Below, in pieces: positions 182-42,682 of a stretch of DNA of 42,789 nucleotides. A program made the position numbers and the translations under genes. The stretch is taken from the IMG/VR virus record IMGVR_UViG_3300017650_000015, positions 1 to 42,789 of that record; one strand, written 5' to 3'. Under the pieces are notes generated by a model. That model searched no databases and was not told the DNA's origin. It was given only the letters and a program-made list of their open reading frames with translations. How positions within the stretch are numbered: position 1 is the first letter of the stretch; each line of letters begins with the position of its first letter. The DNA comes from a virus (Duplodnaviria; Caudoviricetes).

Positions 182-1309
182 CTAGTGGCTGGCGCCCTGT
201 CCTTCCGGCTGATGGCCGGCTTGTGGCACGTAAGCGGCCACAGGGGGCTGCGAATAGATGCGACCGTTTACATCTACCGTGCTGTGGATAGCAAGTTGAT
301 TTATGGCCGAGATCAGCGCGGTCGGGCTCAGGTGGATATACCGCATCGTCGTCGCGATCTGCGAGTGGCCGGCCAGCGCTTGGATGATCTGCACCGACAC
401 GCCCAGGTCGGCGAGGCGCGAGCAGAACTCATGGCGCAGGGCGTGCGGGATGAACTCAGGGTCCGCCGCGTGGCCCAGCCCGGTGCGCATCGAGCGCCAC
501 TTGGCGACGATCTGGACCGTGGTCAGGTCGGGGAACAGCAGGCCCTTAGGGTTCGCCTCGCGGCGCCGCTTGATGACGGCTGCGACCGCCGGGGTGACGG
601 GCACCGAGCGGTTGACCTTGCTCTTCGCCTTGACGCCGAAGACCTTGACATAGGTCGGGTCGCTGGTGGTCCCGTCGTCGAGGGCCAGCACCTCGCTCTG
701 GCGCAGCCCGGTACCGATGGAGATGCGGACGTAGTCGGCCATGTCCGCGTTCCCGGTCAGCTCGAAGTAGCCGATGATCTGGCGTTCCTCGTCGGGCGTG
801 ATGCGCCGGATGCGGCCCTCGCTCTCCTTGAACAGCCGGTGGCGCGGCGCCTTGTCGATGATCTCCAGCTCGACGGCTTCCTTCATCATCGTGTTGAAGG
901 CCGAGAGCTTGCGATTGATGGTCGCCGTTGCGGCCCCCTCTTCCCGCAGCGCCATCACCAGCCGGCCGACCTCCATCTTGCCCACGGCGCGGATGGGCGT
1001 CTCGCGGCCGAGGATGCGGACCACCGAGGTGGCGTTGATGGTCGCCGTCTTGGCCGACTTCTGCTGGTTCCAGCGGGTGCGCAGGGTCCAGTCGAGCAGC
1101 TCGCCCATGGTATAGGGCTTGCCCGAGGCGACCGAGGCTGCACGGGCGGATTGCTCCCCCATGTCGGGTAGATTGCCGCGTAGCAAAGCCGCCAGACTGT
1201 CGGCTTCCCACTGCTTCGCGGCCAGCTCGGTCGTGAACGAGCGGCGATACCGCGCGCCCTTGTGGCGGATGGAGGCTTGCCAAGAGGCGCCTCGTGGTGT
1301 CACAGACAT
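182..1309 (-). CDS. int: Tyrosine recombinase / phage integrase
   Basis: TGLRQSE, HALRH, LAGH and catalytic Tyr (TMRY) motifs; SD AAGGAG; adjacent to att. Confidence 0.96.
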   Translation of the reverse strand: MSVTPRGASWQASIRHKGARYRRSFTTELAAKQWEADSLAALLRGNLPDMGEQSARAASVASGKPYTMGELLDWTLRTRWNQQKSAKTATINATSVVRILGRETPIRAVGKMEVGRLVMALREEGAATATINRKLSAFNTMMKEAVELEIIDKAPRHRLFKESEGRIRRITPDEERQIIGYFELTGNADMADYVRISIGTGLRQSEVLALDDGTTSDPTYVKVFGVKAKSKVNRSVPVTPAVAAVIKRRREANPKGLLFPDLTTVQIVAKWRSMRTGLGHAADPEFIPHALRHEFCSRLADLGVSVQIIQALAGHSQIATTMRYIHLSPTALISAINQLAIHSTVDVNGRIYSQPPVAAYVPQAGHQPEGQGASH

Positions 1310-1336
1310 GCCGTTCTCCTTGAGTGAAGTCCCGCC

Positions 1337-1421
1337 GCCCGGCTGGCGAAACTGGTAGACGCACTTGGTTTAGGTCCAAGCGCCGCGAGGCGTGGGGGTT
1401 CAAGTCCCTCGCCGGGCACCA
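1337..1421 (+). tRNA. Phage-encoded tRNA-Leu(TAG), 85 nt with encoded CCA
   Basis: Acceptor GCCCGGC/GCCGGGC-A-CCA, D loop with TGGTA, anticodon arm CTTGG-TTTAGGT-CCAAG, long variable arm, T loop GTTCAAG. Confidence 0.95.
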
Positions 1422-1432
1422 CTATCCTCCGA

Positions 1433-1855
1433 TCAGCCTGCCGCCTTGTGGGCGCGGAAGGTCATCGAAGCGTGTTCCTTGGGGGTCGGGCTCTCGAAGC
1501 TCGTGATGATCTCGGTGGGCCGAACCGTCCGCAGGATGTCCCGCATCAGCGTCCGGCCCCGAGGGGTCAGAAACATGATCTTTCGGCGCCCTTCCTTCGG
1601 GTCCGGCACGGCCTCAACCAGTCCATAGCCCGGCTTCCCGAACCGATGCCACTCGCCGAGCGCCGCGACATTGCGCGAGCATGCTGACTGCGACAGGCCC
1701 GTCTGATCCGACAGCTCCTGCATCGTCAGCCCCGGATGGAGGGCCACACAGAGAAACGACTGCGCGACCTGAGTGGGCATCACGTCATCGATAGCGCGAA
1801 GGACACCGATCACCTTGATCAGCATGTCAATGTCCCTGCCGAAGTTCTCAGCCAT
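1433..1855 (-). CDS. MarR-type winged-helix transcriptional regulator, probable prophage repressor
   Basis: PGLTMQELSDQTGLSQSACSRNV HTH and D-x-x-x-G-RRK..LT..G wing; SD GGAG before ATG 1855; upstream of int. Confidence 0.85.
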   Translation of the reverse strand: MAENFGRDIDMLIKVIGVLRAIDDVMPTQVAQSFLCVALHPGLTMQELSDQTGLSQSACSRNVAALGEWHRFGKPGYGLVEAVPDPKEGRRKIMFLTPRGRTLMRDILRTVRPTEIITSFESPTPKEHASMTFRAHKAAG

Positions 1856-2847: not shown

Positions 2848-2885
2848 GGCGTAATCTCCCTAGGACATAAATCCTATCTCGACGT

Positions 2886-2900
2886 GAACGGAAAGAGAAC
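2886..2900 (+). promoter_or_regulatory. Alphaproteobacterial LexA (SOS) box, GAAC-N7-GAAC
   Basis: GAAC-GGAAAGA-GAAC immediately before ATG 2901. Confidence 0.8.
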
Positions 2901-3131
2901 ATGCCCCCATTATCCACAGGCCATTCGGCCGCACCCGACCCCTTCCGAGCGCTCCGTCTGGAGCAATGTCAGGGGCGGGCGAGGTGCGTGAACTGCGGCC
3001 ATGTGGGGGCGCTGGACCTCTCGGCGCGTGATCCGAAGATGCCCGCCGTGGACCTCGAAAGGGCCTTGCGGTGCAGCTCGTGCGGCGAGAGGGGAACAAG
3101 CCTCCTGCTACGCAAGGAGGGCGGGCTTTGA
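2901..3131 (+). CDS. Zinc-ribbon protein (CxxC..CxxC, 76 aa), candidate SOS-induced antirepressor
   Basis: CVNC and CSSC pairs; the only convincing plus-strand CDS; preceded by a LexA box. Confidence 0.75.
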   Translation: MPPLSTGHSAAPDPFRALRLEQCQGRARCVNCGHVGALDLSARDPKMPAVDLERALRCSSCGERGTSLLLRKEGGL

Positions 3132-3192
3132 CCGCGACCATCGGGCAGTGGGGACTGCCCTAGGTTTCGCCCTAGGAGGGCTCGTCAGGCGG
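3132..3192 (-). ncRNA. Hammerhead ribozyme, type I; predicted cleavage after GUC between 3136 and 3135
   Basis: RNA: CCGC CUGACGA GCCCU-CCU-AGGGC GAAA CC-UA-GGGCAGU-CCCC-ACUGCCC-GAU-GG UC GCGG; full core and three stems. Confidence 0.9.
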
Positions 3193-3193
3193 A

Positions 3194-3370
3194 CTATCGA
3201 AGGCGGGCGAAGCAAGCCGCAGCCTCGCGCTCCATCTCGCGGACCTCGGCGAGGATCTTCTCGACCTCGTCATGGTCGATGTTCGGGTCATCCACGAAGG
3301 GGTCATAGCCGACCAGTTCGAGGAACTGGCGGGCCAGCTCGACGCGGCGTTCGGTGGGTTCAAAGGTCAT
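3194..3370 (-). CDS. Early hypothetical protein (58 aa, MTFEPTERR...)
   Basis: SD GAGGA; fits the early operon. Confidence 0.7.
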   Translation of the reverse strand: MTFEPTERRVELARQFLELVGYDPFVDDPNIDHDEVEKILAEVREMEREAAACFARLR

Positions 3371-3386
3371 TGGATGGTCCTCAGTT

Positions 3387-3698
3387 CTAGCGGATAGGCA
3401 GTGCCCACAGAGCGCCGAGGTGCGCGGCGATCTCATAGGCCCGCTCGCGGTCGCCGGCCGGGCCATCGGTGACGCATTCGAGCCCGAGCTGGGCGCTGTT
3501 GGCGTGGTAGTGGCCATAGACCGACCAGAACTGCGCCTCGGCGTCTGGCACCTGCTCGACGAACTCCCCGCCCTCCCCGTCAGGGAACAGCGCGCAGCCG
3601 TGGACCTCCAGCCAGTCCCAATCGGCCGCGAGGAGGATCGAGGGCTCAAGGCCCTCCTCGCAGCAGTTGAACAGCTCGGCTTCCGTGAACGTGGTCAT
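3387..3698 (-). CDS. Early acidic protein (103 aa, MTTFTEAELF...)
   Basis: SD AAGGA; about 19 D/E versus 3 R/K. Confidence 0.75.
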   Translation of the reverse strand: MTTFTEAELFNCCEEGLEPSILLAADWDWLEVHGCALFPDGEGGEFVEQVPDAEAQFWSVYGHYHANSAQLGLECVTDGPAGDRERAYEIAAHLGALWALPIR

Positions 3699-3862
3699 GG
3701 CGTGTCCTTCACTTCGATGGGCGTCAGGGTCCGCAGCGCGCGGAACGGATGGTCGCGGTAGAAGCGGCAAGCCGCCTCGAATGGGTGTGCGGCTTCGACG
3801 AGGCAGAAGCCCGAGCCCTGCCAGCGGGTGAGCCGGTAGTTGGCGAGGTAGACGACCGTCAT
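3695..3862 (-). CDS. Early hypothetical protein (55 aa, MTVVYLANY...)
   Basis: ATGA-type overlaps at both ends. Confidence 0.6.
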   Translation of the reverse strand: MTVVYLANYRLTRWQGSGFCLVEAAHPFEAACRFYRDHPFRALRTLTPIEVKDTP

Positions 3863-4296
3863 CGGGTCGCCCTCGCGCTCTCCTCGGCGGTCATGTCGCA
3901 AGGGTCGAACACGAGGATGCCGGGCAGGTACTTGGGGCCGCTGGTGTGCCCAAGGAACGCCATCTCGGCCTTCTCGACGGGCATCCGATGGGTGCCCATG
4001 ACGTGGACGAAAGTGCTGTCGAAGTCGGGATTGAACGAGACGGCCTTGCCGAGGCGCTGGCCGGCCCTGAGGTAGGCGGCATCGGCCTGCCCCCAGAGGT
4101 GATATTGCAGCCCCGTCCCGGTCTCGGTATCGACCGCTTCAAGGTCGCCGAGGAGGTACGGGCCGGCCTTCGTGATCACCAGCTTGACGTTGCGCAGCAG
4201 CACGCGCTCGGCGGTGCCGGTGAGCACGCGCTTGGTCCGGTCATCCTTGAGCGTCCAGCGCCGGACGCGGCTGTTCCAGTTGCAGCGAACGCGCAT
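3859..4296 (-). CDS. Early hypothetical protein (145 aa)
   Basis: SD GAGGGAG; coupled to neighbours. Confidence 0.75.
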   Translation of the reverse strand: MRVRCNWNSRVRRWTLKDDRTKRVLTGTAERVLLRNVKLVITKAGPYLLGDLEAVDTETGTGLQYHLWGQADAAYLRAGQRLGKAVSFNPDFDSTFVHVMGTHRMPVEKAEMAFLGHTSGPKYLPGILVFDPCDMTAEESARATR

Positions 4297-4511
4297 CAGA
4301 AGAACTCCCTCAGGTCAAAGCGGGGATTGCGATAGCCGGCGACAAAGTCCGGCTCGGCGCCCTCGAACTGCCATCCGATCTCCCTCGGCATGGCGTAGAG
4401 CTGGTGCGCCACGTCGCCGAGGTGGCGGGCAAACTGGCGCTGGTTGGCGACCTCGAACGGGCCGAAGGTGCGCTGCGAGAGAGGGTCGAAGAAGGTGACG
4501 CGAGGGGCCAT
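4296..4511 (-). CDS. Early hypothetical protein (71 aa, MAPRVTFFDP...)
   Basis: TGATG coupling; SD GGAGG. Confidence 0.7.
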   Translation of the reverse strand: MAPRVTFFDPLSQRTFGPFEVANQRQFARHLGDVAHQLYAMPREIGWQFEGAEPDFVAGYRNPRFDLREFF

Positions 4512-4921
4512 CAGCGGGCGCCCTCCTCGATCAGCAGGACCGAGCGGATGAGCTTGCGGCGTCCCCAAAACGCATGGATCGGCTTCGGCCCGAGCTGGTC
4601 CAGCACGACACCGTCACGGACCATCTGCACATGGCCGGTGGTCCAGACGTAGTAGAGGCGACCGGGCTCGGCGCGGCGCCGCACGAACGACACCAGCGTC
4701 TCGCGGAACAGGAAGTTGATGGGCCGGAAGCGGACGCCGAACCAGCGGAGAGCCGCCAGCCGCTCATTGTGCGTGGTGCGGCCCTTCCAGTTGCCGCGCT
4801 TGCCGGCCGACATGACGCGCCATGCGTCCTCGAACGGGCAACCAGCGGCGACCGCGACCGCAGTCACGCCGCAGTTAGGGCCGGGCCGAGCGCCGGCAGG
4901 CAGGGCGAAACCCTCGCTCAT
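4511..4921 (-). CDS. Early protein with a possible papain-like Cys/His motif (NCGVTAVA...GHV)
   Basis: Cys at the start of a hydrophobic helix with a downstream His; SD GGGAGG; function is a guess. Confidence 0.65.
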   Translation of the reverse strand: MSEGFALPAGARPGPNCGVTAVAVAAGCPFEDAWRVMSAGKRGNWKGRTTHNERLAALRWFGVRFRPINFLFRETLVSFVRRRAEPGRLYYVWTTGHVQMVRDGVVLDQLGPKPIHAFWGRRKLIRSVLLIEEGAR

Positions 4922-5115
4922 CGCGCGCCCTCCCCTGCCACGATCACCACCTTGCAGCGCCAGCCGGCCAGCATACGGGCGATCTTGACCGCCTCTTTGC
5001 GGCCTGCAGCGTCCCGAGTGATCACGATGGGCTTCCCGAGCCAGCCGGGCGCATCGTCGAACGTCGCGATTTGCCAGCGCTTCGGGGCCAGCTTGGAGAC
5101 CTGATAGACGCGCAT
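4918..5115 (-). CDS. Early hypothetical protein (65 aa)
   Basis: SD AAGGGAG; coupled overlaps. Confidence 0.7.
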   Translation of the reverse strand: MRVYQVSKLAPKRWQIATFDDAPGWLGKPIVITRDAAGRKEAVKIARMLAGWRCKVVIVAGEGAR

Positions 5116-5183
5116 CAGCGGGCTCCCTTGCGGGCCGCAGGCGGCAGGTCCAGAGGGTGCGTGTCGTCGAAACCGTCGATCAT
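5115..5183 (-). CDS. Possible 22-aa mini-ORF (MIDGFDDTHPLDLPPAARKGAR) just downstream of the type II hammerhead
   Basis: SD GGGAGAG; TGATG coupling to the next gene. Confidence 0.4.
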   Translation of the reverse strand: MIDGFDDTHPLDLPPAARKGAR

Positions 5184-5210
5184 CGGGGCTCTCCCGTTCG
5201 TGTCGCTGAC

Positions 5211-5275
5211 AGGCTCGTCAGGCGGCGCCTCACGCCGCGACCATCGGGCAGACGGTGCTGCCCTAGGTTTCGCCT
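5211..5275 (-). ncRNA. Hammerhead ribozyme, type II; predicted cleavage after GUC between 5239 and 5238
   Basis: RNA: AGGC GAAA CC-UA-GGGCAG-CACCGU-CUGCCC-GAU-GG UC GCGGCG-UGAGG-CGCCGC CUGACGA GCCU. Confidence 0.92.
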
Positions 5276-5296
5276 TGCATTCTTGGGGTGCATAGA

Positions 5297-6109
5297 TCAG
5301 TCGACGACAAACCCTGAGGTGTCGCGCTTGGCGTTGCCCTTGGCGTAGAGGCCGACCACCACGCCCTTGGGATCGAGGAACCGAAGGTCCGTTTCGTCGC
5401 CGTTGACCACCTCAGCGACGACATAGTCGCCAGCCGCTGCCAGAGCGAAGCCGTTCGCCTCATAGAAGGCGACCGTTGCCTTATCGCGGAACACAACCGC
5501 CACGTTGAGGCCGTTGCGGAAGGCCTTCACAGCCTGTTCACGGTTGCCATCGGCCAGACTGAAAACCACGGTATAGTTGGCCGGCAGACCCTTGCGGTTC
5601 GGCAGCTTGGTATAGTCATAGAACCGGACGTCGCCGAAGTGCTCGAAGAGGTTGGCCGATCCTTCCGGCTTGCTGGACCAAGTGCCAGCCATGGCCGGAA
5701 CCTTGACGGCTTCCCAGCGGATATCTGAGGTGCCGTTGAGGCGGAATACAGGCTCCAAACCGGCCTTGCGAGCCAGCCGAACGGCCGTTTCCATCTCACG
5801 GACCAGAGCGAAAAGGAACGTCTCGCGGCTCTCAAAGAACCATTTCGTCTTGCGGATGCGGGCCGCTTGGATCGTGTTGACCTTGCCAGCCTTGACGTCC
5901 TCAACGGTCAGACGGGCAACGCCCTTCATCATGCCGCCGCGCCCTGCCGTGTTCAGGCAAGCCGCCTCACAGCCGGCAGTCGCCATCGGGCAGACGTTGA
6001 AGCCCGAGAGCTTGGCAGGCGCCAGATGCAGGATGAAGGTCCAGTAGCCAGCGCCCCGCCCCTTCTCAGTCTTGGGATTGCCGGGCGTCAGGATCTTGAA
6101 ACGTGCCAT
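5297..6109 (-). CDS. GP88-like phage protein (Cys-rich, possibly Fe-S / radical-SAM-related)
   Basis: CPMATAGCEAAC cluster and RLNGTSDI and FYDYTK motifs recalled from the GP88 family; SD AGGAG. Confidence 0.75.
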   Translation of the reverse strand: MARFKILTPGNPKTEKGRGAGYWTFILHLAPAKLSGFNVCPMATAGCEAACLNTAGRGGMMKGVARLTVEDVKAGKVNTIQAARIRKTKWFFESRETFLFALVREMETAVRLARKAGLEPVFRLNGTSDIRWEAVKVPAMAGTWSSKPEGSANLFEHFGDVRFYDYTKLPNRKGLPANYTVVFSLADGNREQAVKAFRNGLNVAVVFRDKATVAFYEANGFALAAAGDYVVAEVVNGDETDLRFLDPKGVVVGLYAKGNAKRDTSGFVVD

Positions 6110-6199
6110 AGTGAGTTGCTCCTACAGGGTGCATAGATGAAGGCAAAGTGAGCCTGTGAAGAGCCGCCAGACGGTGCCCGCCAGCGGCCAATCAGAGGA

Positions 6200-6397
6200 T
6201 CAATACCCGAGTTCGCGGTTGAGCTTGGCGGCGCTATAGGCTCGCCGCTGAGGGTTCCAGCAGGCGGCTTTCGCTTCCGCCATGCCATCGTCATGAGGGC
6301 CGAAGCCGTGGAACTCACAGACCCGATGGAACTGGTCCTCAGTGAGCCAAGGCGGCGTTCCGACCATGCCGCAGACGCTGTCCAGATCGTCGCTCAT
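6200..6397 (-). CDS. Early hypothetical protein (65 aa, MSDDLDSV...)
   Basis: ATG 2 nt after the upstream stop. Confidence 0.6.
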   Translation of the reverse strand: MSDDLDSVCGMVGTPPWLTEDQFHRVCEFHGFGPHDDGMAEAKAACWNPQRRAYSAAKLNRELGY

Positions 6398-6399
6398 GG

Positions 6400-6570
6400 T
6401 CAGAAGTTCCACGGCTTGGCGCCGCGCACCTTGCAGACCGCCGAGGCTTCCCGCTTACCGGAAACCGTGATCTTCTCGCCAGCCTCGAAGGTCGGGCCGT
6501 TGCAGGGCGCCGCGACCAGCGTCAACGTCCAGACCTTGCCGGACGCCTTGTGCAGATATGCAACCATCAT
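6400..6570 (-). CDS. First early gene (56 aa, MMVAYLHKASGKVW...KPWNF)
   Basis: SD AAGGGAG overlapping hammerhead stem III; absent from the ORF track. Confidence 0.7.
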   Translation of the reverse strand: MMVAYLHKASGKVWTLTLVAAPCNGPTFEAGEKITVSGKREASAVCKVRGAKPWNF

Positions 6571-6575
6571 TCACT

Positions 6576-6631
6576 CCCTTGTTTCGCCCTTACTGGGGCT
6601 CATCAGGCCGGCAACTAGCCGACGACAAGGG
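6576..6631 (-). ncRNA. Hammerhead ribozyme, type III; predicted cleavage after GUC between 6624 and 6623
   Basis: RNA: CCCUUG UC GUCGGC-UAGUU-GCCGGC CUGAUGA GCCC-CAGUAA-GGGC GAAA CAAGGG; canonical core with all stems paired. Confidence 0.95.
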
Positions 6632-6638
6632 TTCACGA

Positions 6639-6650
6639 TTTCAAAGAGCG
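6639..6650 (-). promoter_or_regulatory. boxA-like antitermination element
   Basis: CGCTCTTTGAAA in the early leader after GC-rich hairpins; resembles rrn/nut boxA. Confidence 0.65.
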
Positions 6651-6726
6651 CGCCGGGCCGCTTCCCGCCGAAGGCCACCGTTGAGGGGCGGTGCCGGTTG
6701 GCCGTCCGTCCGTCTGGTGTGATTGA

Positions 6727-6756
6727 GTTATAACCCTAGGGTGAATTGTAACGCAA
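6727..6756 (-). promoter_or_regulatory. Major early host sigma70 promoter with a palindromic operator-like site in the spacer
   Basis: TTGCGT-N18-TATAAC, upstream A/T tracts, ACCCTAGGGT palindrome between the hexamers. Confidence 0.8.
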
Positions 6757-6924
6757 GCGGAAAAATGCATCCCTGCATTCTTTTTTTCAAAGCCTAGGGT
6801 TTCTGCGGGTTTGCGACTGCCCGCTAGGGCGGCTCGGCTCACGAAAAGCCATAGGGACGCCGCAAGCGCCTCGCCCTGGCAGCACGCTTCCGCGCCTAGC
6901 CTGCCCGTCTCGCGCGCCCTGGCG

Positions 6925-7120
6925 GCGTCCCTAGCGTGGTCCTATCGTGGCACCTTGCCTCGCCCCTCGCGTGACCCGCTCGCCTCGCCCCTTGCGTGGT
7001 CCGCTTGTGGCGTCCCTCGTGGCGCCTCGCCTCGCCCCTCGCGTGGTCCGCTCGCCTCGCCCCTCGCGTGGTCCGCCTGTGGCGCCTTGCGTGGTCCGCC
7101 TGTGGCACCTTGCGTGGTGC
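6925..7120. repeat. Degenerate short-repeat array near the probable virion genome end
   Basis: GCGTGGTCCG-like cores at 6934, 6969, 6994, 7041, 7066, 7089 and 7112, with CCTCGCCCCT or GTGGCRCCTT linkers. Confidence 0.85.
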
Positions 7121-7625
7121 AAAAGGGACAGTGACAGGGGCGGACGCATGGACGTTACAACATAACACCAGCCGCCCTTCACCTCGCCTCATATCCCGCG
7201 CATTGGCCACCATTGGCGCCGCTAGTGGATGCGGCATCCATTCGGAAACGGCAGGATTGAGCCATTCCGAGGCCCTTGTGGCCACGTTCAGTGGCTCGCC
7301 ACTATAAGGAACGGGTACTCTAGTATGGCGCGGGGTGGCCGGCCGGTCGGCGGTGGGGGGTACCGGGGGGATCGCGCTTCGTCTCTTATCGAGGCCACCA
7401 CACGGATTTTTCCGGCAAAACAAAACGGCCCCTAGGCACCACCTCAGGAACCCGCTCAGGGGCTGCAGAGGAGGCCGTGGGGCCGATATAGGTGCTCGCA
7501 TAGGCTAACCCACCGGGAGCGATGGGCTGGCCTCTAAGGGCACTGGAGCTGGTTGGAGGGGCCTTGCCTTTTAGCGAGGGCTGGCGACAGCCAGGCCGAG
7601 ATAAAAGGCGGGCGCGGCGGGCGCG

Positions 7626-7739
7626 TCAGTCCGGCATATACGGGGCACCGGGGAACCCGCCAGACCACACCCCGACCACGATGACGATCAGAGCGACGAG
7701 GGCGAGGAGGGCATAGCCGATGAAGGAGTCCTTGGTCAT
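7626..7739 (-). CDS. Small membrane protein (37 aa, MTKDSFIGYALLALVALIVIVVGVWSGG...), at the T7 gene 19.5 position
   Basis: SD AGGA; one hydrophobic segment; downstream of a phage promoter. Confidence 0.6.
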   Translation of the reverse strand: MTKDSFIGYALLALVALIVIVVGVWSGGFPGAPYMPD

Positions 7740-7774
7740 GGTGTCCTACTTAAGTGGTTCGTATAGTTCTCACC

Positions 7775-7817
7775 GAGGGGGAATGGGGATGACAATCACC
7801 CCCATCCCCATCCCCTC
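7775..7817. repeat. Inverted repeat downstream of the post-terminase phage promoter
   Basis: ATGGGGATG/CATCCCCAT 9-bp stem plus an outer GAGGGG/CCCCTC. Confidence 0.6.
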
Positions 7818-7838
7818 CTCCACCTATACTCCACTCTC

Positions 7839-7855
7839 CTGGGGTGGGGGGTAAT
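7839..7855 (-). promoter_or_regulatory. Phage RNAP promoter (phiOR-like position); variant copy at 7864-7880
   Basis: ATTACCCCCCACCCCAG followed by GAGAG; recurrent intergenic 17-mer. Confidence 0.8.
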
Positions 7856-7890
7856 TGATGGTCTATCAGTGGGGGGTAATCCCCAACTGA

Positions 7891-9573
7891 TCACACCTCC
7901 ATCCAGAGGTCTCCCGCACCTTGCGGTCCCGTGAACTGCTCGCAGAAGCGACGGAGGTCTGCATCTCGCATGGCCTCATAGTGCTCCGCAGCGGCGCTCT
8001 GGGTGTCCTTCGCCATGTGCTCGGTCCAGTAGCCCACGGCCATGGCCAAGGCGTCCAGACGGTCGTCGTGGCGCAGCGCTCCGCGTTCCCGCGTGAGGCG
8101 GCTGAACTGGTAGAAGAGCTGGTAGTCGCGCTCGCTCTCGGCGTCCACCTTGATGACCGAAGCGTCCACCACGAGGCGGTGAGCTTGGATGACGGGCTCG
8201 AGAACGTCGGCGATGCGGCGCTCCTTCTGGCCCATGCTCTTCTCCTCCTCGACCGTGCAAGGGTAGACCTTGGCGAGGACCGGCTTGAGGAGCTGGGTGA
8301 ACATGCCGTCACCGAAGTTGGCCTCGACGCGGATATGGTTGGCGCCGTGGATCTTCGCGAGCATGGCGAGGCTCTTGAGGGTGCCCTCCGAGTAGCCCTC
8401 TCGGAAGCCGCCAGCGGCCACGAGGAAGAGGTTGCCGTGGAGGATCTTCACGATGGCATAGGCGGTCTCGTCCTTGCCGCGACCCGAGGGATCGATGGCC
8501 ATGACGCAGCCGGTGAAGGGCGCGAGGGCCTTCTCGCCGGTCGCCTGCCACAGCGGGCGGTAATAGCGGTCGCCCGCGAGGCCCACGTTCGGCAGCTCCT
8601 GGATGATCTTGTCGGGGTCGTTGCACCACGCGAGCTGGGTCGGGCCGAGGCGCCGGTCGAGCGACGTCACCATCAGGTCGGCGAGGCGCAGCGGGAAGCG
8701 GTCAGCGTCGGTGAGCGACGTGTCCAGCATGAACTGGAGCATGAAGCCGGCGCTGGCGTACTCGCTCTCCTTGTCCGCGAGGACCAGCTCGTTGAACCGA
8801 GGGGAGACCGGAGTGCCCGGCTTGGCGCCCCTCTCGATCATGTCGAGGATGAACGGGGCGAGCTGCCCTCGGTACTTCTCGACGTTCTCGGGGATGCGGG
8901 CCGGCCAGATGCGGACGGTATAGCCGCGCCCCGGCAGCTCGTTGTAGATCGACATCTCGGACTGTGGCGTGCCGAGGTAGGTGATATAGCCGCTCTCGGG
9001 CTTCACGACGGCCGAGAACTCCTTGATCAGTTCGAGGAGCTTCTCGCGGCTCTGGTGCGTGGCCGAGTTGTTGGTGGTCTCGATGTCGTCGGCGATGATC
9101 TCGTCGGCGCGGGAGCCGGTGATCTGGCCGGTGATGCCGACCGACTTCACGCTCGGGTCTTTCGAGGTCCGCGCGGGGCCGAAGTCGAACATGATCACGC
9201 TGTCCTTCTGGCCCTCTCGGGGGCGTAGATGCTGGAGCAGCGGCATCTCGTCGATGAGCTTCTTGACGAACATCGCGAGGCTGTCGGCAGCGGCCTTCGA
9301 GGCCGACACGACCATCATCTTCCAGTCGGGATTGGTGAGGCCCCGCCAGCAGACGAAGGCGCCATAGATCCACGACTTGCCGACCCCTCGGAAGGCCATG
9401 ATCATCTTCTTGACCGGGCCGTGCTGGAGGAAGTGGGCGATGTCGTACTGCTCGGGCGTCGGGTCCGGCAGGCCGAGGTGCTTCCACACGAGGTAGAGGA
9501 AGTTGCGGAAGTCGCTGAGGATGGGGTCTTTCGCCTCGCTGGTGAGCGCGGTCGAGGACAGGAGTTCGGTCAT
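7891..9573 (-). CDS. terL: Terminase large subunit (T7 gp19-like)
   Basis: AFRGVGKS Walker A, GQITGSRADEIIADD, IDPSGRGKDET, HDDRLDAL. Confidence 0.98.
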   Translation of the reverse strand: MTELLSSTALTSEAKDPILSDFRNFLYLVWKHLGLPDPTPEQYDIAHFLQHGPVKKMIMAFRGVGKSWIYGAFVCWRGLTNPDWKMMVVSASKAAADSLAMFVKKLIDEMPLLQHLRPREGQKDSVIMFDFGPARTSKDPSVKSVGITGQITGSRADEIIADDIETTNNSATHQSREKLLELIKEFSAVVKPESGYITYLGTPQSEMSIYNELPGRGYTVRIWPARIPENVEKYRGQLAPFILDMIERGAKPGTPVSPRFNELVLADKESEYASAGFMLQFMLDTSLTDADRFPLRLADLMVTSLDRRLGPTQLAWCNDPDKIIQELPNVGLAGDRYYRPLWQATGEKALAPFTGCVMAIDPSGRGKDETAYAIVKILHGNLFLVAAGGFREGYSEGTLKSLAMLAKIHGANHIRVEANFGDGMFTQLLKPVLAKVYPCTVEEEKSMGQKERRIADVLEPVIQAHRLVVDASVIKVDAESERDYQLFYQFSRLTRERGALRHDDRLDALAMAVGYWTEHMAKDTQSAAAEHYEAMRDADLRRFCEQFTGPQGAGDLWMEV

Positions 9574-9689
9574 GGGATTAGAACCCGCCTGTGGGTACGT
9601 CAGGGCACGCGCCAGCGGCCTCCGTGGCTCGACCCGCTAGGTGTGGTGCGGGGAACGACGGAGGCCGCTCTACGGGGCTCTCTGAGGGT

Positions 9690-9968
9690 TTACTGGGGGA
9701 GGCCGTATTCGTCCGTATTGGACGGGAATGGTAGGTTGGCCCGGTTGGCCAAGCCTTGCAGCTCGGGGCTGTTGCTGATGTCGGCGTCGATGCTGTTGTC
9801 CTTGAGGAACTGCCGGATGGCGTTCAGCGTGGACGCGCCGGGGGTGACCTTCACCGCCTCGCCAGTCTCCTTGTCGATGGCCGTCTCGCCGTTCTCCAAG
9901 ATGTCCTTGAAGGTGGTGGCGAGGGCCGCGTGAAGGGCTTCGAGGACGGCCTTGGGGGCCTTGCTCAT
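9690..9968 (-). CDS. terS: Terminase small subunit (T7 gp18-like)
   Basis: LNAIRQFLKDNSI motif; upstream of terL. Confidence 0.88.
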   Translation of the reverse strand: MSKAPKAVLEALHAALATTFKDILENGETAIDKETGEAVKVTPGASTLNAIRQFLKDNSIDADISNSPELQGLANRANLPFPSNTDEYGLPQ

Positions 9969-28674: not shown

Positions 28675-28694
28675 GAAAATGGCGCCTAGGTTTC

Positions 28695-28711
28695 CTGGGG
28701 TGGGGGGTAAT
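28695..28711 (-). promoter_or_regulatory. Phage RNAP late promoter
   Basis: ATTACCCCCCACCCCAG between a terminator and the virion operon. Confidence 0.85.
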
Positions 28712-28723
28712 TGGCGGGGGCAG

Positions 28724-36749: not shown

Positions 36750-36757
36750 TGGGTTTG

Positions 36758-36774
36758 CTGGGGTGGGGGGTAAT
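36758..36774 (-). promoter_or_regulatory. Phage RNAP middle promoter
   Basis: ATTACCCCCCACCCCAG followed by CAAACCC. Confidence 0.85.
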
Positions 36775-36788
36775 CCCCTCCCCGGCCG

Positions 36789-39403: not shown

Positions 39404-39446
39404 GGGGTTCTCTCGGTTGTCGAGGGGCGATAGCGCCGTGGGTTTG

Positions 39447-39463
39447 CTGGGGTGGGGGGTAAT
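39447..39463 (-). promoter_or_regulatory. Phage RNAP promoter just downstream of the RNAP gene
   Basis: ATTACCCCCCACCCCAG followed by CAAACCC. Confidence 0.85.
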
Positions 39464-39487
39464 CACCTCCCACCTCGGTGTTTTATC

Positions 39488-39503
39488 CCTAGGGTGCATA
39501 GAT
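39488..39503 (-). promoter_or_regulatory. Operator-like motif TCTATGCACCCTAGGG
   Basis: Recurs near 42566, 6126, 5285 and partially at 6735, always intergenic. Confidence 0.6.
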
Positions 39504-42043: not shown

Positions 42044-42215
42044 GATTGTCCTCGTCGATGCGTTGGACTGGAGGGTTGCTACCCGAGGTCGGATAGGTGC
42101 AGGCACACCTCTCCCCTCAGGGGCCACTTAGGTGGTCCCTCTAGGGGTTGGTGGGTGGTGGTGGGGATCTCAGGTCAGCCTCAGCTCGACCTCAGTTCCA
42201 CTTAATGGGCCTCTC

Positions 42216-42269
42216 CTGGGGTGGGGGGTATCCCCGGCCAGCGCCTTGTCTGCTGGGGTGGGGGGTAAT
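42216..42269 (-). promoter_or_regulatory. Two tandem phage RNAP promoters upstream of the RNAP gene (42253-42269 and 42216-42232)
   Basis: ATTACCCCCCACCCCAG and GATACCCCCCACCCCAG. Confidence 0.82.
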
Positions 42270-42278
42270 CGCCCTCCC

Positions 42279-42556: not shown

Positions 42557-42590
42557 GGTATATATCCTAGGGTGCATACTATCAAGTCAA
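42557..42590 (-). promoter_or_regulatory. Host sigma70-like promoter overlapped by the operator motif
   Basis: TTGACTTGATAGTATGCACCCTAGGATATATA; exact hexamer register ambiguous. Confidence 0.6.
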
Positions 42591-42666: not shown

Positions 42667-42682
42667 GGAACCTAAATCCAGC
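42667..42682. repeat. Right att core (16 bp)
   Basis: Identical to 108-123. Confidence 0.95.

Follow-up and report, generated by a model that had tools for sequence, protein, structure and literature searches.

The 42,789-nt virus record IMGVR_UViG_3300017650_000015 (Duplodnaviria; Caudoviricetes), analysed over its full length and called the window below, carries three hammerhead ribozyme motifs, HHR1 (type III), HHR2 (type II) and HHR3 (type I), between the genes of its early region. Do these motifs cut the early transcript, and why do three different topologies stand in one operon? The window comprises a whole prophage, with genes for a T7-type RNA polymerase (RNAP), primase/helicase, DNA polymerase, virion proteins, terminase, a MarR-type regulator, tRNA-Leu and an integrase. 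It has all hallmarks of temperate T7-like (Autographiviridae-like) phages: a single-subunit RNAP, T7-type replication and virion genes, MarR together with a tyrosine integrase, and att repeats. The stretch from the terminase to MarR is probably the left, early end of the phage, because the genomes of phages RHEph01, Lo5R7ANS and LUZ100 have this linear layout. The three motifs likely self-cleave the early transcript (probability roughly 0.65), yielding a short leader and two pieces with predicted terminal hairpins, one of 1385 nt with three genes and one of 2103 nt with eight, and the topology of each motif would suit its place. Cleavage has been published for other members of the group; for the window elements this reading draws on the motifs, their position, which is the same in related phages, and compensatory changes in the stems.

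Both strands were searched with a descriptor of the three topologies, comprising CUGANGA, GAAA and UH, with stems I, II and III closed beside the core. It returned exactly three matches in 42,789 nt, all on the minus strand and the same under each of three parameter sets, and none of 100 dinucleotide-shuffled sequences contained any match under the two parameter sets used for this control. A preliminary description of the sequence had located the same three elements and the same cut sites (Table 1); both stand, as do the sizes of 1385 and 2103 nt that it gave for the pieces. All three elements contain the core nucleotides C3 U4 G5 A6 N7 G8 A9, G12 A13 A14 A15 and U16 H17, and three stems without mispairs adjoin each core, in agreement with the criteria of Perreault (2011). 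As to the tertiary contact between stems I and II, loop I of HHR1 fits the U-Nm-Y-N motif (PMC3088659), a 3-bp pairing of loop and tail is possible in HHR2, and HHR3 offers only 2 bp. Stem III of HHR2 contains a UA/GAU internal loop followed by a 6-bp extension and is closely similar to stem III of HHR3, the flanks also being shared. This common stem III family was missed by the preliminary description, as were the competing folds of both elements.

None of the elements lies inside an open reading frame (ORF) with a family match or a homologue, consistent with their earlier placement outside coding sequences. Short mechanical ORFs overlap all three; four of these were tested against the compared loci, and two gave no match and two a single marginal match each (E 0.004 and 0.008), the match at E 0.008 falling on a ribozyme motif. 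A fourth ribozyme was sought in the early region with relaxed core patterns, and none was found. An array of coreless targets, that is, substrate-only tags before the early genes, was rejected: the extra matches to the cut-site tag below position 7000 all lie inside ORFs. The minus-strand counts of 9-mers are not above the plus-strand counts.

Clusters of hammerheads in prophages, and the idea that they process polycistronic transcripts, have been known since 2011, and the window is a further case: close to an integrase, at least two complete hammerheads of one sense stand beside genes or gene blocks. According to the accessible text of Perreault (2011; PMC3088659), prophages often have several hammerheads on either side of genes or gene blocks, with a possible role in processing long transcripts; three arrangements cleave in vitro, among them those in tandem from prophages of A. 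tumefaciens and A. caulinodans, and the A. tumefaciens triple also cleaves in E. coli. Oligonucleotides given there match two of the loci compared here, L123 and L366 (L-numbers are labels of compared loci), exactly, and the cut spacings in these loci, 889 and 940 nt, equal the published fragment sizes, by which the third hammerhead of L123 lies outside the tested piece. L366 is 54-56% identical to the window in RNAP, 50% in MarR and 41% in integrase; the terminase of L123 is 56% identical to that of the window, and its record holds a T7-type RNAP (42%). Both published alphaproteobacterial clusters thus occupy the same place in phages of the window's group. Like the window, the A. tumefaciens triple and the A. 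caulinodans pair consist of complete cis hammerheads upstream of MarR, tRNA and integrase, with the same proposed role (PMC3088659, accessible text). The type content differs, being three type II in L366 and III, III, I in L123, against III, II, I in the window. In the same text the setting is worded as "presumably a prophage", and T7 kinship, type order, product refolding and boxA do not appear in it; mixed types are possible in its Figure 3.

Autocatalytic processing of the early mRNA, as put forward in the preliminary description, remains the best reading in view of the published cleavage in kin and the comparative patterns below, but its novelty had been overstated: it stated that no phage operon with all three topologies was known to have been described, while clustered prophage hammerheads, a triple included, and the processing idea are found in PMC3088659. 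Nor is the presence of all three topologies unique, since two further records, L128 and L131, carry all three types. In the accessible text of a 2019 review (PMC6765202), the roles of bacterial and phage hammerheads are largely elusive and the processing of polycistrons is a suggestion.

The arrangement of hammerheads was compared across 37 non-redundant T7-like loci, the window included, which remained after removal of 13 duplicates from 50 loci passing a filter of at least 11 pairs and spans up to 40 nt. These loci contain 87 ribozymes (37 type II, 34 type I and 16 type III), one to seven per locus; the third element of L366 escapes the descriptor and is absent from these counts. All 87 are sense, and none lies outside the interval from the terminase to MarR/integrase, two permuted records being exempted from one bound of this interval. 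The three types occur together in three loci, namely the window, L128 and L131, the last of which is the closest relative of the window (terminase 73%). For the order III, II, I, the 17 mixed loci provide 41 concordant against 8 discordant pairs; among the mixed loci, type III occupies the first place in 11 of 12 and type I the final place in 12 of 15. Within-locus permutation gives p ~5e-5 for the type order, a value that is overstated because the phages are kin. The type-order rule and the association with the early operon in temperate T7-like phages are new here: a literature search, covering few subscription journals, found nothing on hammerheads in T7-like phages or Autographiviridae or on type order.

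The position of ribosome sites also distinguishes inner from last ribozymes. A start led by a Shine-Dalgarno (SD) sequence follows within 45 nt in 35 of the 49 inner ribozymes, against 4 of the 23 last ones (background 19%), and past the last ribozyme 19 of the 23 loci have a long gap lacking such a start. In the proposed mechanism, the early transcript would be cut autocatalytically during its synthesis. At HHR1, the bulk of the type III ribozyme would stay on the downstream RNA as a 5'-hydroxyl end with stems I and II, and the cut would also loosen stem III over the first ribosome site. The 3' strand of this stem contains the first 3 nt of the SD sequence of the first ORF (6578-6574), an overlap seen by eye also in L110, L123 and L128, and the computed unpaired probability of the 9-nt SD region rises upon the cut, yet only partially. 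The type II ribozyme in the middle would provide a hairpin for both neighbouring pieces. The type I ribozyme would remain on the upstream RNA, with stems II and III and a cyclic phosphate, so that the early message would have its 3' end at the last cut, short of the MarR/integrase module; HHR3 looks like a maker of 3' ends rather than of 5' ends, a point that the preliminary description did not make. With type III staying downstream, type II shared and type I staying upstream, the order III, II, I would give each coding piece a folded 5'-hydroxyl start and a folded cyclic-phosphate end.

The role would parallel the processing of T7 early mRNA by RNase III, with no need for the host enzyme. In T7, as in the window, the cut signals lie between genes of an early transcript made by the host polymerase. 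T7 early mRNA has RNase III sites besides R1.1, and cleavage by RNase III leaves 5'-phosphate and 3'-hydroxyl ends. Site R1.1 is documented in the accessible text of PMC6121014. T7 relies on a host enzyme, whereas hammerheads are protein-free and leave a 5'-hydroxyl and a cyclic phosphate (PMC6765202, accessible text). That a temperate T7-like lineage swapped host RNase III for a topology code, in which III opens, II divides and I closes, as a selected design, is a more tentative proposal, for which the odds appear somewhat short of even.

The same gaps and ribosome sites bear on whether the cuts instead mainly lower expression, by detaching the message from the polymerase and opening it to decay or Rho termination, which would limit early output or the read-through that starts at the early promoter or at the phage promoter (7837-7857) and enters MarR and the integrase. 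Such an effect would agree with the long gap without SD-led starts after the last ribozyme, both in the window (284 nt) and in the 19 loci mentioned, with a scan that listed no terminator-like site on the minus strand between 3135 and 2675, and with the decay that follows glmS cleavage (PMC6765202, accessible text). The location of inner ribozymes right before ribosome sites is a better fit to preservation than to destruction of the message, and so is the favoured order, which puts hairpins on the coding pieces. Turning down expression is unlikely as the general role of the cuts, and it may be what HHR3 alone does.

The order of types also has a bearing on the fate of the pieces, which might be re-ligated to circular polycistronic mRNAs, either through reversal of the hammerhead reaction or through a host ligase that joins 5'-hydroxyl and cyclic-phosphate ends. 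The 2103-nt piece, a possible circular phage mRNA, can regain a complete hammerhead (type I or II) from its two ends, and the 1385-nt piece a weaker one; only non-descending orders permit such rebuilding (cross-locus controls gave 0% for II>III, I>II and I>III), and such an order is found in 46 of 50 natural neighbours. Neighbours of mixed type, however, rebuild a hammerhead in 13 of 18 cases against about 10 expected from cross-locus rates, which is no clear excess, and separate folding of the two ends is favoured over the junction hammerhead by about 13 kcal/mol (-42.2 vs -29.4). Circular or spliced products were not detected according to the accessible text of PMC3088659 (data not shown there), and circularisation appears very improbable compared with linear pieces folded at both ends.

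The stems of the ribozymes are conserved by pairing. The distal part of stem III, which was scored neither by the search patterns nor, for the internal-loop family, by the descriptor, forms at least 4 pairs in 127 of the 138 distinct sequences; in swapped controls the share is 14%. In a 16-row alignment of type I elements, in which the inner stems had been selected for pairing, 99.3% of the cells pair, and 9 of the 17 pairs show changes in both partners. Refolding of the products is indicated in the tails. Type II elements carry the tail NUCA in 23 of 152 distinct sequences, and its base matches N7 in 21 of 22 countable cases; the four bases past the cut of type I elements have a second partner downstream in 38 of 97 sequences overall (8.7 in shuffles) and in 21 of 34 from T7-like loci (3.6 in shuffles). 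The loop I-tail pseudoknot of type II is marginal (50 of 152; shuffle mean 34, maximum 51). Refolding of the products by the HHR2 tail hairpin and the HHR3 downstream hairpin would render the cuts one-way. In these models the alternative folds could make cleavage one-way, if it is co-transcriptional, or slow it.

Excised at the limits given in Table 1, HHR1 (z -2.55) and HHR3 (z -2.07) have the hammerhead as minimum-energy fold, and HHR2 does not. For HHR2, the fold with the alternative hairpin was computed at -30.8 kcal/mol, against -29.4 for the active fold; truncated right after stem II, HHR2 folds into the active form, fitting co-transcriptional cleavage. These results relate to the rather unlikely case that only some of the three elements cut efficiently, HHR2 and HHR3 being hindered by folds or ribosomes, or that the clusters are near-neutral passengers arising via duplication. 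The alternative folds of HHR2 and HHR3 are computed to be more stable, HHR3 begins 1 nt past the stop codon 3196-3194, where ribosomes might hinder it, and the two elements have stem III and flanks in common; furthermore, the number (1-7) and type of hammerheads vary widely, most relatives lack them, and 4 of 18 consensus hammerheads were inactive (PMC3088659, accessible text). Perfect cores in all three elements, covarying stems and the constrained strand, interval and order, along with the active fold of truncated HHR2, speak against this case.

Several further points weigh against self-cleavage of the early transcript and against the proposed role of topology. The preliminary description had suggested a check with Rfam models: at the gathering score no hammerhead family (RF00008, RF02276, RF00163, RF02275; clan CL00010) matches any of the elements, and an E-value threshold likewise does not identify them, with partial matches far below the cut-offs at HHR1 and HHR2 (21.8 of 52 and 18 of 48.5 bits) and none at HHR3. 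The core and three-way junction are common to these families and the window elements, and elements of related loci do reach the cut-off (one type III in L123 and two type II in L366), whereas those of the window do not. By sequence criteria the three elements belong with the hammerheads, whereas by score they are not members of the Rfam families. The pseudoknot of HHR3 is unclear and its stem I has just 4 bp, and the internal-loop form of stem III is not among the ribozymes matched to the 2011 assays. Computed alternative folds lie below the active fold by 1.4 kcal/mol in HHR2 and 0.9 kcal/mol in HHR3, and minimum-energy folds by 2.8 and 4.4 kcal/mol, respectively. The predicted 5'-hydroxyl and cyclic-phosphate ends may stabilise the pieces, a 5'-hydroxyl perhaps shielding them from RNase E. 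The set of 37 loci was enriched by searches requiring a type I or II motif, type III is spread over about seven lineages in a quick tree and the order statistics concern kin phages, and L131, the closest relative, starts with type I. In samples selected by protein, among the matches listed, hammerheads were found in 3 of 15 loci chosen by terminase and reaching MarR or integrase, and any hammerhead in 7 of 53 loci that have both terminase and integrase (from integrase scans plus one genome stretch, with a few duplicates). Searches of LUZ100 and Lo5R7ANS revealed no hammerhead.

Hammerheads thus appear to be a minority trait among temperate T7-like relatives, and the carriers are gathered in few clades of a quick terminase tree (64 rows). 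Where present, they keep to one region: among the matches listed in the terminase sample, 492 kb upstream of the terminase end contain no hammerhead, and 253 kb downstream of it contain eight, all sense. LUZ100, RHEph01, TRX32-1 and Lo5R7ANS, all temperate T7-like phages, have the gene order and MarR/integrase module of the window, and RHEph01 (type III and type I) and TRX32-1 (type I) carry hammerheads at places matching those of the window, with predicted cuts after record positions 665 and 2633 in RHEph01 and 40387 in TRX32-1. LUZ100 was examined for its mapped RNA ends and, having no hammerhead, provides no in vivo test; the words "ribozyme" and "RNase III" are absent from the accessible text of its description (PMC10134795). 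In L284 (LUZ100), a boxA-like element followed by a long hairpin occupies 648-783, near the mapped RNA end T1, which has no label of a predicted intrinsic terminator in the record; judged by eye, this hairpin could be an RNase III site where other phages have a hammerhead. Two pattern scans of viral contigs, built on the stem III common to HHR2 and HHR3, yielded 67 stretches in one case and at least 128 in the other, and the flanks of 80 were examined. Large arrays of a single type were also encountered, in L195, L205 and L169 (7-10 type II) and in L089, L093, L113 and L127 (seven type I each), on viral contigs with no match to the T7-like marker proteins used. L186 contains seven type II hammerheads at 6001-9829, six of which precede an A/C-rich spacer, with a start codon no more than 27 nt away, an array that we presume to resemble engineered ribozyme insulators.

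Table 1. Features of the early region and lysogeny module of the window.
Feature	Position	Strand	Remarks
Candidate host-RNAP promoter (TTGCGT, 18 nt, TATAAC)	6727..6756	-	by-eye match, not listed by consensus scan
boxA-like element	6639..6650	-	15 nt upstream of first cut
HHR1, type III hammerhead	6576..6631	-	cut 6624/6623; stems I/II/III 6/4/7 bp
ORF, 56 aa, phrog_20574 (unknown function)	6400..6570	-	first gene of 1385-nt piece
ORF, 65 aa, without family match	6200..6397	-	in 1385-nt piece
GP88-family ORF, 270 aa (PF17338, phrog_1617)	5297..6109	-	last gene of 1385-nt piece
HHR2, type II hammerhead	5211..5275	-	cut 5239/5238; stems I/II/III 6-7/4/3 bp plus 6-bp extension
Alternative hairpin of HHR2	5206..5221	-	tail GUCAG (5210-5206) pairs with core CUGAC (5221-5217)
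Eight small overlapping or abutting ORFs	3194..5183	-	content of 2103-nt piece
ORFs of 2103-nt piece	5183-5115, 5115-4918, 4921-4511, 4511-4296, 4296-3859, 3862-3695, 3698-3387, 3370-3194	-	
HHR3, type I hammerhead	3132..3192	-	cut 3136/3135; stems I/II/III 4/4-5/3 bp plus 6-7-bp extension
Second partner for the 4 nt past the HHR3 cut	3121..3135	-	downstream product can refold into 5' hairpin
Gap without SD-led ORF after HHR3	2848..3120	-	284 nt to next SD-led start
MarR-type regulator	1433-1855	-	lysogeny module, downstream of ribozymes
Phage tRNA-Leu(TAG)	1337-1421	+	lysogeny module
Integrase	182-1309	-	lysogeny module; whole module 182..1855

Transcription would start near 6721 from the candidate promoter of Table 1, and the leader of about 100 nt depends on this by-eye candidate. 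The element upstream of the first cut and its counterparts elsewhere, which we take to be boxA, occur within 45 nt upstream in 7 of the 11 T7-like loci starting with type III, the window counted. In T7, a boxA-like 11-mer is located at 814-824 in the early leader, between promoter A3 and gene 0.3. GP88-family genes of the distant T7-like loci L423, L430, L431, L437 and L444 have a type II hammerhead directly before or after them, like that of the window. The 22-aa ORF that opens the 2103-nt piece (5183-5115) has homologues in L432 and L455, the L455 copy coming after a type II hammerhead. A perfect copy of what is presumably a DnaA box lies at 2910-2918 on the plus strand, about 215 nt downstream of the last ribozyme, and DnaA-box-like sequences stand right after the type I ribozyme in six Rhizobium-type loci (L001, L002, L108, L115, L136 and L458).

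Several repeats were found around the early region. A 21-nt repeat occurs in six minus-reading copies (7837-7857, 28693-28713, 36756-36776, 39445-39465, 42214-42234 and 42251-42271) and is probably the promoter of the phage RNAP; the copy past the terminase (7837-7857) is directed into the early region. The sequence TATGCACCC is present four times (5286-5294, 6127-6135, 39492-39500 and 42570-42578; 0.12 expected), two of the copies flanking the GP88 gene, and a related near-palindrome lies within the candidate early promoter at 6729-6745. These copies are candidate operators, perhaps of the MarR protein. Imperfect tandem repeats with units of 23-25 nt, at 6930-7120 between the terminase and the early promoter, presumably resemble the repeats beside the T7 terminal repeats.

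The prophage is bounded by a 16-bp repeat with copies at 108-123 and 42667-42682. At this core the host tRNA-Leu(TAG) is split by integration: it is rebuilt by the empty site, and neither by the phage site nor by either prophage end, and the phage carries its own tRNA-Leu(TAG) (Table 1). The split host tRNA and the phage-borne copy fit tRNA-dependent lysogeny, as in mycobacteriophages (PMC10865867, accessible text); the tRNA-Leu of LUZ100 is regarded as a relic of imprecise excision in the accessible text of PMC10134795. By RNAP, the nearest named relatives (49-52% identity) are Rhizobium phages TRX32-1, RHEph01 and RHEph21 and Pseudomonas phage LUZ100, and the host of the window is inferred to be an alphaproteobacterium. 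The early region has no close DNA relative among named phages (four short matches in 50,697 records). In GTDB genomes, the terminase search yielded one locus; among 401 genomes of one order, four had the terminase at E up to 1e-50, and their four stretches contain no hammerhead. A look through sequencing runs listed no RNA run that contains the window, and no ribozyme variants were found in the contigs of three soil DNA runs, one of which may be the source of the window, while the third has only a small share of it.

The rule that type III comes first, type II inside and type I last would explain the use of all three topologies in one operon. The comparison gives hammerheads a definite location, in the early operon of temperate T7-like phages, and their role is testable in the isolated Rhizobium phages RHEph01 and TRX32-1. 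The internal-loop family missed by Rfam is common among viral contigs, so annotation probably overlooks many phage hammerheads.

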